Below are positions 34,144-60,429 of a stretch of 64,000 bases of DNA, piece after piece (position 1 is the first letter of the stretch; each line of letters starts with the position of its first letter). Both the position numbers and the translations under genes were made by a program. Source of the stretch: Nitrospinales bacterium (GTDB lineage: Bacteria > Nitrospinota > Nitrospinia > Nitrospinales > VA-1). The stretch spans positions 1,344,001 to 1,408,000 of the forward strand of contig OZ253496.1 of the NCBI GenBank assembly GCA_965262115.1, written 5' to 3'. The notes under the pieces are model-generated. The model had not been told where the DNA came from, made no database searches, and worked only from the letters and a program-made list of their open reading frames with translations.

Positions 34144-34540
34144 TACCAATTGGAGGTTTTCAGCTATTTCATTAAGATTAACAGGATGTATTGCCGCGAA
34201 AGGGTGATATTGCGACGCACTATAGCATGGGCGAATGTCTTTTAATAGAAAAAAACGCCCCACTTGCACTATTAAGCGAAGAATTTTAACACTGAAAATT
34301 CCCAAATACTAGATTTTTTTCTTTCTTGTCTCAATTTCCGAAAAAAAAACATCTTCCCGCCCAAACGAGCCATTTTCAAAACTGGTTCCTGCCAGAACCC
34401 TGGCGAGCTATTTTCCGCTTCCCGGAAGGTTTCTTTAAATACTCTTTGTCCTGCATTTCCTGGATCGACTGAAGCTTGGCTTTGCAGAAATGAGCCTAAC
34501 GGAAATTATAGTAATCGACCGAATTCTGCGCATCCTGGGA

Positions 34541-34669
34541 GAGACCTTTGCGTAAGTCTATAAAGCAAAAAAGCGAGATGCTTCGACAAGCTCAGCATGA
34601 CAATAAAAGGCTATTTTTTCATTCTGAGGAGCTATTGCAACGAAGAATATTGGGTTATGCAAAGGTCTC
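34541..34669. mobile_element. 129-bp MITE with 9-bp target site duplication
   Basis: Ends GAGACCTTTGCGTAA / TTATGCAAAGGTCTC. ATCCTGGGA flanks both sides (34532-34540 and 34670-34678). Confidence 0.9.
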
Positions 34670-34837
34670 ATCCTGGGAGGAGACAAAGTGGGGAATTGCT
34701 TCCACCCTTGATTCCACAGGCGGAAAGAAAAAACACCATTCCCGCTGTCCCAATGATTTTAAACAACCTTGGCATACGACCACAAATCAAATAATTCTTT
34801 TTATATCAATAGATTATACGAAAATCCCTGTTTCCCG

Positions 34838-36073
34838 TCAAGCTTTGGGGCTAATTTGCTGGGATGCGGGGAAAAGGGCATCGGGTTCCCCGTCCATCCT
34901 ATAAAAATCCACTTCACAGCGATGAGGTTCGAAGGGCACATCCCACCAAGGCCCTGAATAAGAAGGAGAAACGCGGAATCCAATCAAATCTGCCTTTTGT
35001 CCAGGTGCGAGGGTGCCGCACTGCAACCCCAAAGCTTCTGCACCCCCAGCAGTTGCCATAGTAAGTATTTCCTGTCGGCTGACATCGGGCAAAAGTTTAT
35101 CAGCCATACGCAACTCGTCGAGAAAATTGAGAGAATCATTGCTGGCTAGTGAATCGGTTCCTAGAGCCACATTCATTCCCCTATCCAGCAAAGCGCGAAC
35201 CGGCGTGAATTGCGTCCGGCCAAACCACGCGGTGCTCTTGGGGCAAAACACCGCGCTAACCTTTTTCTCTTCCATAGTATCCAGATCGTCTGAGACAAAA
35301 TTGCAGTGCACAGCGATAAGACAATCCAAAATTTCAAGTGAAGAAAGATATTGCATCGGCGTTTTATAGGGAGGTTGCCATTCGGGGTCCCAGGCAGACC
35401 TTTCCTTTAACAATTCTTCCAGTGAATTGTCACCGATCACAAGAAACCTGGACTCTTCTTTGGTTTCCGCAACATGGCAGGAAAGCGGGCAATGATATTT
35501 CTTGGCCAGTTGCGAAAGATGCCGGAACAGATCGGGAGAAACAGAATAAGGCGCATGCGGCGCCAAGCCCAACTGATAAAGCGGAGAAACGCATTCACGT
35601 TGTAAAACCTCTTCCAGGTTTTTGCAAAGCATCTGCGCTTTTTCGGAATGAAATCCTATCGTCTCCAAGAACAACACGGAGCGAAAACCCAACCCGCCAA
35701 TCACAGGCAACAGTTCAGGCTCGGCAACATAGTCTCCCAGCGCGGTCACGCCGGAACGCTTCATCACTTCAGCACCAGCGCAAATTCCCCGGACCCGGCT
35801 CTCGTTATCGAGAGCGGAGTTCAGCGGGATCAACGCACGTATCCAATCCGCAAATGAGTCAGAAGGAGAAAGTTTTTTTTCAAGGGCGGTCAAACTGAGG
35901 TGGCAATGCGCGTTGACAAACCCCGGCATGAGCAGGCAGTCGGAAAGATCCACATCATCATTGCCCGATTGGGTTGTTGAGATCTCGACAATGTTGCCGC
36001 CTTCGATAATCAACTCACCGTTTTCAACGGGGTCTCCGCAAATTGTCAGCAAACCCCGGAATTTAATTTTCAT
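34838..36073 (-). CDS. Metal-dependent amidohydrolase (nucleoside/aminofutalosine deaminase-like)
   Basis: MPGFVNAHCH, APHAPYSV, HVAET, AVHCN, ALGTDS motifs. Confidence 0.85.
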   Translation of the reverse strand: MKIKFRGLLTICGDPVENGELIIEGGNIVEISTTQSGNDDVDLSDCLLMPGFVNAHCHLSLTALEKKLSPSDSFADWIRALIPLNSALDNESRVRGICAGAEVMKRSGVTALGDYVAEPELLPVIGGLGFRSVLFLETIGFHSEKAQMLCKNLEEVLQRECVSPLYQLGLAPHAPYSVSPDLFRHLSQLAKKYHCPLSCHVAETKEESRFLVIGDNSLEELLKERSAWDPEWQPPYKTPMQYLSSLEILDCLIAVHCNFVSDDLDTMEEKKVSAVFCPKSTAWFGRTQFTPVRALLDRGMNVALGTDSLASNDSLNFLDELRMADKLLPDVSRQEILTMATAGGAEALGLQCGTLAPGQKADLIGFRVSPSYSGPWWDVPFEPHRCEVDFYRMDGEPDALFPASQQISPKA

Positions 36074-36083
36074 AGCCTGATTT

Positions 36084-36542
36084 TTAAAAGTATGTAGAAT
36101 CCTTATACTGTTGATAGGCAGAACCCAATTGTTCCAACAGAACTTTCTCTTCGGCCCGGGCGCGGACGATGTTCAATGGGATCACCACCACAAACACATA
36201 AACCAGACAAGGGATAGAACCGCAGGCCACAAACAATCCGCTCAACGTTAAAACGATTCCTATATAAATCGGGTGACGAAAAACCCGGTAAATCCCTTGG
36301 GTGACCAAATGGTCTGTTCCCGGCAGAACGGCGAGCGAAGAACCCAGCGACCACATTGCAACCATCCATAGCAGAACACCCACCGCCCCGATGGACAGTC
36401 CCGCATAAACCAGACCGGGCACACCGAAACCAAAATTTTTCGGCCCCACGTAAGCCAGCACCAAAGGAACCAGGTAAAACATCGGAACCAGAATGTTCAA
36501 CATAAACTTCTGGTTTGAGCTGAGGGATTTAAAATCAATCAT
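36084..36542 (-). CDS. Isoprenylcysteine carboxyl methyltransferase / PEMT family membrane protein
   Basis: LVTQGIYRVFRHPIYIG and RAEEKVL...G..YQQY motifs, with TM helices. Confidence 0.85.
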   Translation of the reverse strand: MIDFKSLSSNQKFMLNILVPMFYLVPLVLAYVGPKNFGFGVPGLVYAGLSIGAVGVLLWMVAMWSLGSSLAVLPGTDHLVTQGIYRVFRHPIYIGIVLTLSGLFVACGSIPCLVYVFVVVIPLNIVRARAEEKVLLEQLGSAYQQYKDSTYF

Positions 36543-36639
36543 TGTAAATTACCAGTGTGCCAGCGGAGCACCTCCGCTGGGAAATGGCATGTCTTGATCT
36601 CGTGCCCAATCGGTTTCTCGGCTCAATACTATTGCCTAT

Positions 36640-36927
36640 GAGACCTTTACATAACCCCGGATTACCCCTTCGGGGCATGAAGGTTAAGGAAGAGGACATC
36701 ACATACCCCTTCTACCCGTTCCGGGCATGAATTTAGCGGAGGGGATATCACAGGCTCACGAAGGTTAAGGAAAAATATCACGTCTTCGTCACGTTATTCC
36801 TCAGAATGACAAACCGGCTTTGCGCTGTCATTCTGAACGCAGTGAAGACGTGATATTCCACTTAAGCTCTCGTGCCCCGAAGGGGTAATCTCGCTTTTTT
36901 GTTTTTTTCGACTTACGCAAAGGTCTC
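36640..36927. mobile_element. MITE with 9-bp TSD carrying four ~40-bp inserted elements
   Basis: Ends GAGACCTTTACATAA / TTACGCAAAGGTCTC. ATTGCCTAT flanks both sides (36631-36639 and 36928-36936). Inserts at 36663-36782 and 36849-36887. Confidence 0.9.
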
Positions 36928-36988
36928 ATTGCCTATTTCCTCTGGCGGCTCGCCGGTTGGCCACATGTTATATACCCCACCTTAGCTT

Positions 36989-38074
36989 TCATGCCCCGGA
37001 GGGGTACGCCGAGTGGCCGAGCAGTTGTTTGTTGAAGGCTTCACGTCCTTCCAGAATTTCAAGTTCGATCACCACTTTAAAAAAAGGCAAGATGAATTTC
37101 ATCTCTTTGAGTTTCACCGCATCTTTTTCTGGAAGCAGAAGGAACCGGGCGCCCTCTTTTACTGCGCGGGACTCCAGTTCTTTAATATCCTGCAAGGTAT
37201 AAGGATGATGATCGGGAAAGGACTTGAAAAATTTTAGTTGAATCTGCGAGTCCAGCAAAATCTGCCTGAATCCTTTCGGTTTTGCAATCCCACAAAATGC
37301 GGCGACCGGTTCATTCTTTAATATTTCCATCTCCAACACTTCCTCATCATCCATGCGAATTATGGAATCCAGACGAAGGTGCGTTTTGATCTGGGGAACG
37401 GAACCTAAAAGGCGTGAATCAAAATTGATGGAACCGCCGGAATAATGGGTGAAGCAAACCATATCTGCCCTTCTTGTTTCTCTTGCCGGTTCACGCAACT
37501 CCCCCGCCGGAAAAAGGTGACCGTTACCGAGCGGCCTGCAATGATCAAAAAGCAGGATGTCCAGATCGCGGTTTAAAGCCAGGTGCTGAAACCCATCATC
37601 CAGAACCAGAGTATCAACACCAAAATGATCGAGCGCGTACTGCCCTGTCTGATAACGGTCTGGCCCGGTTAAAACCGGAATGTTTTTGAGTTTTTCCGCC
37701 ATCATGACCGCTTCATCTCCGACCCACTCAGGAGAAAGCAGCGTTTGTTTTCCATCGCAGACCACATTGACCGGGTCACCGGATTTTCCGCCATAACCCC
37801 GGGTGAGAATAGCGGGCTTGAGTCCGTTTCCCCTGAGGGTTTCGGCAATCATCATGACAAAGGGCGTTTTTCCTGTTCCGCCCAGCGTCAGGTTGCCAAC
37901 GCTGATCACCCGGCAGTCGAGTTTGCGGCTGGGAAATACCCCCCATCGGTAGGCCCAGAGACGAAAATGGTGGCCCAGTAAATAAACAAAGGAAATGAGT
38001 TTCAGGATTGCAAAAACCGGAAACCAATACCATTTGCGATCGGGCGATATGACTTTATAGAAAATTTCAGACAT
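36989..38074 (-). CDS. lpxK: Tetraacyldisaccharide 4'-kinase
   Basis: VISVGNLTLGGTGKTP, LTRGYG, GDE, LDDGFQH...RD, PAG.LRE, FPDHH. Confidence 0.96.
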   Translation of the reverse strand: MSEIFYKVISPDRKWYWFPVFAILKLISFVYLLGHHFRLWAYRWGVFPSRKLDCRVISVGNLTLGGTGKTPFVMMIAETLRGNGLKPAILTRGYGGKSGDPVNVVCDGKQTLLSPEWVGDEAVMMAEKLKNIPVLTGPDRYQTGQYALDHFGVDTLVLDDGFQHLALNRDLDILLFDHCRPLGNGHLFPAGELREPARETRRADMVCFTHYSGGSINFDSRLLGSVPQIKTHLRLDSIIRMDDEEVLEMEILKNEPVAAFCGIAKPKGFRQILLDSQIQLKFFKSFPDHHPYTLQDIKELESRAVKEGARFLLLPEKDAVKLKEMKFILPFFKVVIELEILEGREAFNKQLLGHSAYPSGA

Positions 38075-47155: not shown

Positions 47156-47271
47156 TACCCCTTCTACCCGTTCCCCTAAATTCATGCCCGGAACGGGTAG
47201 AAGGGGTATGTGATGTCCTCTTCCTTAACCTTCATGCCCCGAAGGGGTAATCCGGGGTTATGCAAATGTCA
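47156..47271. repeat. Partial MITE end with ~40-bp elements (largely reverse complement of 36640-36736)
   Basis: 47176-47265 is the near-identical reverse complement of about 36647-36736; 47156-47174 pairs with 47190-47208. Confidence 0.85.
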
Positions 47272-47277
47272 CGCTGG

Positions 47278-47642: not shown

Positions 47643-47766
47643 GGAGGCCTTTGCGTAACCTGAGATTCTCATTGATCCTCCCCTCTCATGAGGGGAGGCA
47701 ATGATCTTCCCCTGAATTGGTGGACACATCGAAAAGTGTGGATAATACACTTTTGGAGGTGTTTTT

Positions 47767-48101
47767 ATGGGAACCAAACGCAGGAGTTTCAGTAAAGAAT
47801 TCAAGTTAGAAGCGGTTCGATTGGTTATTGAAGTAGGCGATAGCATTGCCCGGGTGTCCCGGGATCTGGGAATCCGTTCTGCCCTTCTGGGTCGCTGGAA
47901 ACAGGAGTATGAGGAGGATCAGGGGAATGCGTTTCCCGGCAAAGGACAGCTTAAGCCGGGAGATGAGTTGCAGCAGTTGCGGCGAGAAAACGCTCGCCTT
48001 CGTATGGAGCGGGACATATTAAAAAAGGCGGCAGTTATCTTTGTGATGTCCTCTTCATTTGTCTTCATGCCCCGAAGGGGTACTCGAAGGGTTCCCAATG
48101 A
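47767..48101 (+). pseudogene. IS3 OrfA (HTH), 3' end disrupted by a 41-bp insertion
   Basis: RRSFSKEFKLEAVRL...LRRENARLRMERDILKKAA. Removing 48042-48082 restores VIFSKGSQ* overlapping the orfB ATG. Confidence 0.85.
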
Positions 48102-48961
48102 GATATCGGTTTATACGGGATCATCGAGAAGCATTTCCGGTAAGCCCGATGTGCCGGGTTCTGGAAGTGGGACGAAGTGGGTTCTATGCCTGGCTGAGCC
48201 GCCCCGAGAGCCTGAGGAGCCGTGAGAAGCAGCGATGGGTTGATGAGATCAAAACCGTTTATAAGAAGAGTCGCCAGACTTATGGCAGTCCCAGAATTCA
48301 TGAGGACTTGAAAGACAAGGGATATGCCATTGGCAGGCATCGTATTGCCTGTCTTATGCGCGAGCATGGAATCGTTGCCAAGCACAAAAGAAAGTTCAGG
48401 GTGACAACCGATTCCAAACATAATCACCCGGTGGCAAAAAACAAACTGCAACGGCGGTTTAATGTTGCTGAGCCCGGTCAATGCTGGGTTTCGGATATCA
48501 CCTATATCCCGACTCAAGAGGGCTGGTTATACCTTGCGGTGACGCTGGATTTATTCCACCGTAAAGTTATTGGTTGGGCCATGGATCGTTGGATAACCCG
48601 TTGGTTGGTAATGAGAGCTTTAAATATGGCAATGAAGAACGGCGGCATGAAACCGGGATTGATTCACCATTCTGACCGGGGGGTTCAATATGCCTGCAAC
48701 GATTTTCAAGCCTTGCTCAATGTTCATGGGATAGAGTGCAGTATGAGCCGGAAGGGCGATTGCTGGGATAACGCCGTGGCGGAGAGTTTTTTCCATACTC
48801 TCAAAGTGGAACTCATTCATAACCGGAACTACAAAACCCGTCAGCAAGCAAAGAAGGATATTTTTGAATATATCGAAGTGTTTTATAATCGGCAACGCCG
48901 TCACTAATATCTCGGCTATCTCAGCCCTGCCGAATTCGAGAAACAGGCCTATGCCTCTTAA
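48098..48961 (+). pseudogene. IS3 OrfB DDE transposase with a late nonsense codon
   Basis: [33 protein letters not shown]. Reads NRQRRH*YLGYLSPAEFE, with TAA at 48905-48907 where Ser is usual. Confidence 0.9.
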
Positions 48962-49186
48962 CTAACTGTCCACTAAAACAGGGGAAGATCACATATAACA
49001 CAGGGGGGGGAGATGACAGTCGAAAAGGCCAACAGGCAGTAAATCACCCCAACCCGTCGGACAAGACGTATTCCTATTGTTCAAGTTTAAGAAAGAGGGG
49101 GATTAAAAACTTTCCCTGTCTGTGGGATTGCTTTTCACTCTCCCCGGCGAGGGTGCCGATTTTTTATCTGGCCCTGCGCCGAGCAG

Positions 49187-50728: not shown

Positions 50729-50948
50729 CCGGTGAACCGCCGGTAGCAACGGGGCGGTGATACCCCTGCGGAGCATGAAGACTAAAGTGGGGACATCACA
50801 CGCACTTGCGACCACCAAAAGCATCGTTGTGATATTCTGCGAAATTCATAATCCAACCCTCCTCCAGCTCCTCCCTATGAAGGGAGGAGAGAATAAGGCA
50901 AGGACTTGTTAAGCTGAGAAGAACTGTTGCTCGCCAAAAAAACTATGG

Positions 50949-51524
50949 CTAATTGCCCCCACGGCTAGTGGCGGCAATAAATTTTTCTCTGGCTTGTTCG
51001 TCCTGTAATTGTTCTTCATCAATAACAGGTATGTCAGGAAAGTGTTTCATGAAGGCCCGGGCAAACAGTCCGGAGGTTTTTTCAACCGTTTCGCTGTGGA
51101 CAGGGGCATCTTTTATTGCGCAGGAAGGGGAACGGCTTTTAAAAATAAATCCACATACGTTCAGTCGCGTTAATTCCTCCAGCTTTTTAGAGCTGAAGTT
51201 GGTCATCGCATCCGTCTAGTCTTTTCCCGATTCGACACCTACCATGCGTACCACTACCCGTGGAGGGAGCTTGCTGATGCCGGGCGGCAGCTTTTGAGTT
51301 GAGTTCGAACTTTCTCCCGCTAGGCATTCATCGCCCGTCACGATTTGAACTTTTTCTCTCGGGACACCCATTCCCATTTCCACTTCAGGGCAGACCGGCA
51401 CCGCTTCGAACCGATCGTCTACGTCGAAAAGGTCGATCACGCCTTGGTTATATTTATGTTCCCCGTTATAACGAACCGATTGACCCAGCAGACAACTGCT
51501 GACCCCGATTTTGAGTTTTTCCAT
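50949..51524 (-). pseudogene. DUF523 (2-thiouracil desulfurase-like) gene with an in-frame TAG and an inserted repeat
   Basis: GVSSCLLG..VRYNG, VCPEVEMGMGVPRE, KSRSPSC, GLFA. The two ORFs are in one frame, separated by TAG at 51216-51218. Confidence 0.85.
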
Positions 51525-57319: not shown

Positions 57320-57516
57320 CCCCAGCGTGACGCTGGACTCAAAATCTAAGGACACAGTTTATTTAGCCGAGATAACTCTTTGCTCACCAAACAGAGTTAT
57401 TACCAGCTGGCCCCACGCCTAGTGGTATTTTTCAGGTATTCCGTGACATCAAGTTGGAGAGATTATATATTAAGAATAACGAGGATTTTTGTGTTCAACC
57501 GGGGGAGGAGGGAAGA

Positions 57517-58312: not shown

Positions 58313-58730
58313 CTGCTCACCGCAGGGGCAAAGTTTAATGACCTATTAAGCCGAGAGGATTGTTGCTGGCAGTAAAAAGCTATTGCTAATCGGCCCTACG
58401 CCTAGTGGCTGCTCGCCGCAGGGGCAATAGGTCAATGCACACCAAGCCTGCAGATGGTATTGCCCACTCAACTCTGGTCTGCAGTTATTTCCTCCCATGT
58501 AAAAGGTGCTCTTTGCAGGGGCGTGGTATTCTTACGTAGCTGTGATGCCTCTTCCTTAAACTTCATGCCCCGTAGGGGGAGAACGGCTACAACTGGCTGT
58601 CCCTTCCTCTTATTTTAGAGATTGTTTGAGCGCGGCAAAAGGTATACAAGTTACCCGCGGAGGTACTCCACTGAATCCAGCGTCACGCTGGCCTCCGCCG
58701 CAAATGGCGGGGCTCTATGACCATAGCTTT

Positions 58731-60290: not shown

Positions 60291-60429
60291 GTACCGGCGA
60301 ACCGCCGGTTGCAGATGCACAAACTCATTAAGCCAAGATAAGCTTTTGCTAGCGCGACATGATATTTTTCATTAAAGTTTGTGCCTCGCAGGGGTATAAA
60401 ACTATCGCTAGTTGGCCCCACGCTTAGTG

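Follow-up and report, generated by a model that had tools for sequence, protein, structure and literature searches.

The element at 36640-36927 raises the question of how a MITE comes to contain several smaller elements, and of what these smaller elements are. It is located in a stretch of 64,000 nt from a Nitrospinales bacterium (contig OZ253496.1, positions 1,344,001 to 1,408,000), referred to as the window; the whole genome is designated G000. From the letters alone, a previous inspection (the sequence-only reading) had described a MITE which, after removal of four small units, has exactly the size of a simple copy at 34541-34669, and had proposed repeated, site-preferring insertion of a small element into a MITE.

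Layout of the nested element

Removal of the two inserts, 36663-36782 (120 bp) and 36849-36887 (39 bp), from the 288 bp of the element leaves 129 bp. In an end-to-end alignment with the reverse complement of 34541-34669, 99 of 130 columns are identical with one gap in each sequence, and the score is 161 compared to 72 in forward orientation. The residue is therefore colinear with the simple copy, as had been assumed. Both inserts split the motif GAT^TCTTC, in opposite orientations, with the boundary at GAT^T being ambiguous by one T. The 120-bp insert consists of unit A in tandem with unit C, whose hairpin loop is in turn interrupted by unit B, and the 39-bp insert is unit D, each of the four units having a size of 39-41 bp (Table 1). 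A 9-bp target duplication flanking the element had escaped the sequence-only reading. Terminal repeats of 15 bp are present on the 288-bp and the 129-bp copy, each with its own 9-bp duplication. An Rfam search at the element yielded nothing above the gathering score.

Four units need not indicate four insertions into this particular copy, because the whole 120-bp insert was found again, with at most two mismatches, at one other site in G000, and the nested C[B] pair at five others. In this respect the proposal of repeated insertion into the MITE had to be relaxed.

Contigs of run X1, which is possibly the source, match 34640-36679, 36650-36733, and 36763-37400 with no differences; no exact piece covers 36734-36762 among the matches listed. 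Run X4 from a second study contains an exact match at the left junction of the element. As far as the run contigs show, the nested structure is no assembly artefact. The element is located between a gene of the PEMT/ICMT family and lpxK. The orthologous gap is empty of the MITE in three relatives (G019, G007, and G006), and the strains in runs X5 and X7 also lack it at this position.

Table 1. Features of the nested element and its surroundings (positions in the window)
Feature	Position	Strand	Remarks
Left copy of the 9-bp target duplication	36631..36639	+	Exact 9-bp duplication in 42/77 terminal-repeat pairs
IS5-derived MITE, 288 bp, 15-bp terminal inverted repeats 36640-36654 / 36913-36927	36640..36927	.	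Empty orthologous sites
Unit A, 41 bp, GNA-loop hairpin on minus strand; unfilled IS110 target	36663..36703	-	
Unit C part 1, hairpin arm and loop, interrupted by unit B	36704..36712	-	
Unit B, 40 bp, at edge of the unit C hairpin loop	36713..36752	-	
Unit C part 2	36753..36782	-	
CT in place of GG of intact units, +3/+4 after unit B	36755..36756	+	Filled-site flank change; orthologous pair
Left CGTC/Ssn-type palindromic repeat, resuming at 36660-36662 beyond the insert	36783..36811	-	Features described in PMC3733652
Right CGTC/Ssn-type palindromic repeat, resuming at 36888-36892 beyond the insert	36826..36848	+	
Unit D, 39 bp, GNA-loop hairpin on plus strand, the strand reading the right repeat from its TGTC tag	36849..36887	+	
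Right copy of the 9-bp target duplication	36928..36936	+	
Fifth unit, outside the MITE, in the second repeat family	36966..37006	+	
Simple 129-bp MITE copy, own 9-bp duplication 34532-34540 / 34670-34678	34541..34669	-	

The MITE family and its cargo

Genome-wide, 77 pairs of the terminal repeats were detected in G000 within 3 kb of each other, 42 of them with an exact 9-bp duplication. The lengths of the copies cluster at 128-129, 168, 207-209, 247, 288, and 330 bp. The tabulation that the sequence-only reading had asked for gave a ladder of 129/168/207/247/288/330 bp, and therefore the nesting is not due to chance. Three hot spots for units exist in the MITE, GAT^TCTTC in either arm and one in a loop. 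MITE nesting in itself is ordinary. Among the 77 pairs, the MITE very often appeared to be central in short C-rich/G-rich palindromes. At 47156-47275 of the window, a truncated left part of the MITE, which contains unit A and the beginning of C[B], ends in an inverted duplication of the hairpin ends.

Five elements of 1,173 bp with the terminal repeats of the MITE were found in the relative G013, three of them with a 9-bp duplication. Their 313-aa protein scores 267 bits against the IS5 model NF033581 (cut-off 140). In G000, the same terminal repeats bound broken remnants of IS5-type transposases. Because its ends are common to the intact IS5 element of G013 and the remnants in G000, the MITE is a non-autonomous derivative of the 1,173-bp element. 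As in IS5-family MITEs, the ends and the 9-bp duplication are shared with an intact element, but the body is a dimer of CGTC repeats with three hot spots for a small unit.

Two hairpin repeats with a TGTC tag, inverted relative to each other, make up this body, and its predicted fold has a z-score of about -3.3. The CGTC/TGTC tag of these repeats, their stem opening with AT, and their arrangement as an inverted dimer are features of CGTC REPs, as defined in PMC3733652, and of Ssn-related motifs, as far as described in PMC11893778. A small GIY-YIG gene with flanking repeats may be a further likeness to these published descriptions; in contrast to them, the repeat here has a longer and irregular loop, rides as cargo of a MITE, and serves as a landing site. 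In G000, CGTC-type repeats flank small GIY-YIG genes at G000:C1:2573218-2573433 and 2378957-2379070, their assignment to an SsnA-like subfamily being made by eye. The gene at the latter position is truncated, and a unit is found in its downstream repeat. In G013, CGTC repeats, MITEs, and units form extended arrays at G013:C1:382000-408000 and in other clusters, some of them surrounding small repeated genes and IS5 copies.

The small unit

Iterative peeling revealed 216 units in G000 and 292 in 2.4 Mb (84%) of G013. They are 38-42 nt long, mostly 39-41, with a variable middle of 13-17 nt and no gene. Using a strict pattern, units were detected in none of 18 genomes outside the genus, but in 20 of the 22 further genomes within it. 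In a species collection, 77 of 80 titled matches are Nitrospina/Nitrospinota records; among the remaining three, one resembles a true unit and two resemble chance matches. Three viral loci also bear units. Units occur on two viral contigs (L019, L020, and L021); one of them adjoins a phage head module and lies in the target class that is also used on chromosomes. Perfect tandem runs of four to five units and mosaic composites exist. At G000:C1:814839-815074, four identical tandem units and a fifth one all lie within the middle of a sixth.

The unit has no terminal repeats, and among 173 non-tandem units of G000 none showed a direct repeat of at least 3 nt at its ends. One end is a hairpin, followed by only 2 nt. 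Its loop reads T-N-C, corresponding to GNA on the opposite strand, in 203 of 213 units, and all four bases occur as N. The closing pair of the hairpin is complementary in 199 of 213 units, as CG, GC, or TA. A second covarying pair is formed by the base in CA[C/T/A]GA, immediately 5' of the hairpin on the folded strand, and the base at the far end; complementarity, with three types of pairs, was observed in 201/213 units of G000 and 271/285 of the G013 part. Single units do not fold better than shuffled sequences (z -0.2 to -0.6), so that the case for the hairpin rests on covariation. GNA triloops are very stable in single-stranded DNA. Reading the loop as a UUCG RNA tetraloop is excluded by the covariation of the closing pair (CG, GC, TA).

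Targets and orientation

Exact unit ends were obtained at 239 distinct targets. All 15 filled GAT^TCT[T/A]C sites of G000 have a terminal repeat of the MITE within 45 nt, but 64 of 132 such sites in 2.4 Mb of G013 do not, indicating that the target is the repeat and not the MITE. The site preference proposed by the sequence-only reading is therefore retained, with the CGTC-type repeat borne by the MITE, rather than the MITE as such, being its object. At CGTC repeat positions, all units are in one orientation (41/41 in G000, 120/120 in G013) and none in the opposite one, the folded strand of the unit being the tagged strand of the repeat.

Units have also landed in other units, both in the hairpin and in the middle, as well as in a second repeat family and in an IS3-type element. 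The second family, with a CTAG-containing hairpin at its end, is found in the window at 2215-2241, 50944-50970, 57398-57424, 58381-58407, and 60403-60429, and units are inserted in it in either orientation and at several positions. The IS3-type element (family assigned by eye; window 47702-48991) is represented by about two dozen copies or pieces in G000 and contains a unit at 48042-48082; in several copies IS110 is inserted in that unit, yielding an IS3::unit::IS110 arrangement. Over 166 distinct targets the consensus is weak, W N ^ N S Y N C, with no fixed tetranucleotide. Unit subtypes keep to target classes. No replichore bias of the units was detected (+42/-47 and +59/-59 on the two arms).

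Two apparent regularities were discarded. Pairing of the variable middle, as a guide, with the flank was more frequent than expected (59/334 vs 38.7 +/- 5.2 and 40/239 vs 24.5 +/- 4.2), but the register was chosen post hoc and no clean rule emerged. Identical units sharing the right flank at different targets (48/144 vs 47/2880) are confounded by leakage between the arms of one repeat family.

Changes in flanking sequence at filled sites

Comparison of filled and empty sites in G000 and the 2.4-Mb part of G013 revealed changes next to the unit. In units split in their hairpin, GG at positions +3/+4 after the inner unit is replaced by CT in 17 of 22 filled cases, compared to 0 of 579 intact hairpins; unit C of the window carries this change. 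The same exchange of GG to CT was found in the second, unrelated repeat family (8/9 filled vs 0/112 empty sites). In two further target classes the new bases are TA or A (4/4 vs 0/20; 15/84 vs 0/187), the remaining 69 of 84 sites of the latter class being unchanged, as is one entire class (0/13). On the left flank, GACA is changed to GAGA in 28 of 43 filled and none of 47 empty sites, which is probably for the most part one event or unit type amplified by the MITE. Filled-site counts do not represent independent events, because composites get copied, as evident from the recurrence of the 120-bp insert and the C[B] pair.

Across the genus, CT is present in 24 of 31 hairpin-nested sites in seven genomes and in 9 of 11 sites of the second family in five genomes. 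Six of the seven unchanged hairpin-nested sites contain an inner unit with a variant end. In orthologous filled/empty pairs of G000 and G013, four of eight differ at both +3 and +4 with matching outer flanks, and the tracts end by +6; these eight pairs are drawn from 11 rows, after one tandem case and two within-genome pairs were dropped. The +1 base departs from the closing pair of the host in only 3 of 24 changed sites, which is weak support for a donor origin of the flank bases. Shared flanks are about 9 nt on the left and 3-4 nt on the right. RecA needs about 20-25 bp of homology, and these flanks are thus too short for it. It is likely that the changes seen only at filled sites reflect an undescribed mode of DNA insertion.

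An IS110 element targeting the unit

All 32 Transposase_20 matches in G000 are from one IS110 (226.8 bits against NF033542, cut-off 140). Its junctions are found in unit hairpins at a CT core, 26 of 26 on the right and 25 of 26 on the left, with up to 18 distinct left flanks. The sole left junction elsewhere is at G000:C1:2144620-2144783, where the left end of IS110 is repeated 163 bp downstream in its own non-coding region. In the predicted fold of the 5' non-coding end of IS110, one side of an internal loop matches the left half of the target and the other side the right half, guides being defined here as for IS621 (PMC11208160). The predicted right guide fits the TTC loop in 21 copies; in two copies it fits the TGC loop, and these occupy units with a TGC loop, so that each guide variant sits at its matching loop variant within one genome. 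The guide of the IS110 copy in G013 fits its own site only with two G-U/G-T wobbles. Of the 30 TTC-loop target 11-mers remaining in G000, 29 are units, and units A and D of the MITE are unfilled targets. IS110 would thus use the unit hairpin as its target via a predicted bridge RNA. It shares with IS621 and ISPpu10, as described in PMC11208160 and 10.64898/2026.03.19.712850, the CT core, a 5' non-coding region that holds the left and right guides, and a hairpin repeat as target; different from these descriptions, its target is a mobile unit, and two natural guide variants are found in two loop variants of one genome. Since IS110 is present in only 6 of 23 genomes, and absent from G007 with 83 and G022 with 51 units, it appears to be a parasite of the unit and not its mover.

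Search for a gene moving the unit

Y1_Tnp was not detected in G000, G013, and G007. It is present in 7 of 22 relatives, including one genome without units, and the ends of these genes differ from those of the unit, all being bounded by TIRs or having an unrelated hairpin. In six relatives, Y1 proteins of 325-333 aa lie between short inverted repeats (TIRYT-like; L012-L017), which are unrelated to the unit. A weak Y1 match common to four unit-rich genomes turned out to be a false lead, a conserved gene beside queF that presumably encodes a DUF1566/Lcl protein. Y2_Tnp was found in none of five genomes. Bacterial-type RT genes were not detected in G000, G007, and G019, and one is present in the low-copy genome G006. 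Two RT hits in G000, both with stops, are confined to the contig start, G000:C1:1-80000, a region rich in simple and satellite repeats that resembles eukaryotic DNA joined to the bacterial chromosome. Y1, Y2, RT, and IS110 do not track the copy number of the unit.

Apart from IS110, no long element with split unit ends was found in G000, nor any in 2.4 of 2.86 Mb of G013. Searches for a nuclease-like gene flanked by units and for an HUH motif under a stricter pattern were likewise without a match, and no obvious mover was seen in the 6-kb flanks of units at phage loci. Small ORFs resembling DUF559-type nucleases are repeated at G000:C1:377342-377869, 735355-735802, and 1589932-1590392. A third palindrome family is possibly associated with these ORFs; it is also found within some of the MITE copies (180-182 bp). 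Absence of a mover today is not decisive, because the MITE's own transposase is broken in G000 as well.

Possible mechanisms of insertion

The observations from which a mechanism has to start are the layers, the exact ends without duplication, the covariation in the hairpin and of the end bases, the oriented targets, the flank changes confined to filled sites, and the insertion point of IS110. We favour, at about even chances, that the unit moves in single-stranded form by a hairpin-binding strand-transfer enzyme. The folded strand would be that with the GNA loop, and its hairpin end would be joined exactly by an HUH-like enzyme acting in trans. The far end would be resolved by pairing of 4-6 bases of donor flank with the target, and a few bases of the old flank would be carried along and replace those of the target. 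Such pairing would account for the fact that unit subtypes keep to target classes, and likewise for the flank changes. The DNA-type loop, the covariation 5' of the hairpin, the strand-specific targets, and the limitation of changes to few bases are in favour; that no enzyme was found, that there is neither a fixed target nor a lagging-strand bias, that contig data show no circle or excision junction, and that one class and most sites of another are unchanged speak against it. Coupling sequences of the Tn916 type were ruled out by reasoning, the left end being fixed and a double-stranded circle of 40 bp being implausible. A lagging-strand bias is expected for IS608-type elements (PMC5027513). 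In IS200/IS605 and TnpA-REP systems, a guide 5' of the hairpin is described to pair with the cut end for the choice of sites (10.1101/279083, PMC8266576); the covarying base of the unit is likewise 5' of the hairpin, but its partner lies inside the element and not in the target. The broader claim that the unit constitutes a new minimal class of mobile DNA, inserting as a single strand with 4-6 bases of old flank as a DNA guide that overwrites the target, and depending on an enzyme outside Y1, Y2, RT, and IS110, we regard as unlikely.

A somewhat unlikely alternative is that, after a few ancient insertions, the unit spread without an enzyme of its own, as members of the host repeats switched templates or underwent gene conversion with each other at replication forks; changes in the flanks would then stem from one founder composite per target class. 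The lack of a mover in the genomes with the highest copy numbers, the mosaic composites and perfect tandem runs, the adherence of subtypes to target classes, and the change of GACA to GAGA, mostly one amplified unit type, would fit. Such a process is difficult to reconcile with the occurrence of GG to CT in target families that are unrelated to each other, the inner units having 11 different tails in one and 7 in the other, in seven and three genomes, respectively, with exact ends at so many distinct targets, and with conversion tracts ending within 6 nt in orthologous pairs; moreover, the closing pair and the end-base pairing are maintained, which implies recognition by a protein.

An enzyme of another kind, a Ssn-type GIY-YIG or other small single-strand nuclease, could nick hairpin repeats, with the unit being patched in during repair. 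Most targets are indeed hairpin repeats, suitable genes exist in G000, and cutting of only one strand by SsnA, as reported in PMC11893778, fits the orientation rule. The same source places the SsnA cut upstream of the hairpin, whereas units are found in repeats of other kinds and, within CGTC repeats, in the 3' arm or loop. Nor would this account for the conservation of a hairpin and of end pairing in the unit itself. Moreover, we know of no joining activity of a GIY-YIG nuclease, and this explanation is considered improbable. Reverse transcription of an RNA in the style of prime editing, with a nick priming synthesis of the unit and a few flank bases and the new flap replacing the old one, would produce one-sided flank replacement without duplication as the expected outcome. 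It is very improbable given that bacterial-type RT is missing from G000, G007, and G019, only the low-copy G006 having one, and that the conserved loop is a GNA triloop of the DNA type. Movement of the unit in trans by the bridge recombinase of IS110 is suggested by the junctions in unit hairpins, but IS110 is located within the unit in the manner of an element in its target, the ends and targets of the unit share no core, and unit-rich genomes lack it. This possibility is largely refuted and scarcely tenable.

Comparison with known small elements

The terminal-only PATEs of Haloquadratum (HqIRS46, ISHwa23 cores, 52 bp) described in PMC3119063 are like the unit in being gene-less, about 40-50 bp in size, and devoid of terminal repeats and duplication, and in having one near-terminal palindrome, further from the 5' than from the 3' end, that is struck by other elements. 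According to the same source, these single-palindrome elements of 52 bp appear to be mobile. Different from them, no parent element or TnpA with matching ends was found for the unit, only 2 nt follow its hairpin, and it shows filled-site flank changes, which are not mentioned in the available text of PMC3119063. By the more general features of IS200/IS605 PATEs, the unit has no terminal repeats, no duplication, and a near-terminal palindrome, but a fixed 5' target of 4-5 nt, an element with cognate TnpA, and a lagging-strand bias were not found. GTAG REPs/REPINs of RAYT systems differ as well, the foot of the unit on its folded strand being TCRTG and not GTAG/GTGG. Repeats of class 3 Y1 genes are described with a CnGA foot (PMC6006769), which the folded strand of the unit lacks. 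No unit head was found near the eight Y1 loci examined, and no RAYT-type gene flanked by the unit among them.

SDR1-8 of the Nostocaceae (Elhai et al. 2008) are reportedly 21-27 nt long and nest in themselves and in other small elements. The unit shares with them a very small size, exact insertion, structure, and no known mover, as well as, from what is said of SDRs, nesting in its own copies. It differs in its length, 38-42 nt and mostly 39-41 compared to the 21-27 nt reported for SDRs, in its variable middle of 13-17 nt, in being targeted by an IS110, and in the phylum in which it occurs. Insertion of SDR5 in HIP1 is described in PMC5861425 and PMC4390886. As judged from these sequence features, the unit seems to work most like the 52-bp terminal-only PATEs and the SDRs of Nostocaceae, but would belong to neither. 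No paper describing this unit family was retrieved in a literature search, which was not directed at flank editing by small elements, and the main text of a preprint, 10.64898/2026.10.21.760802, contains neither 'Nitrospin' nor 'MITE'.

How repeats of less than 50 bp, such as SDRs, CGTC REPs, and terminal-only PATEs, are spread is a long-standing question. The part of the present analysis worth following is the exact-ended unit of 40 bases with its reproducible flank change, for which no mover was found. IS110 offers a natural case in which a predicted bridge-RNA guide has been adjusted to variant loops of a target that is itself mobile. The reproducible change at filled sites is a mechanistic fingerprint that would not be expected from peel-and-paste or bridge recombination as these have been described. 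Since its ends are exact, three of its features covary, and filled and empty sites number in the hundreds, the unit family provides a defined substrate for the search for an enzyme.
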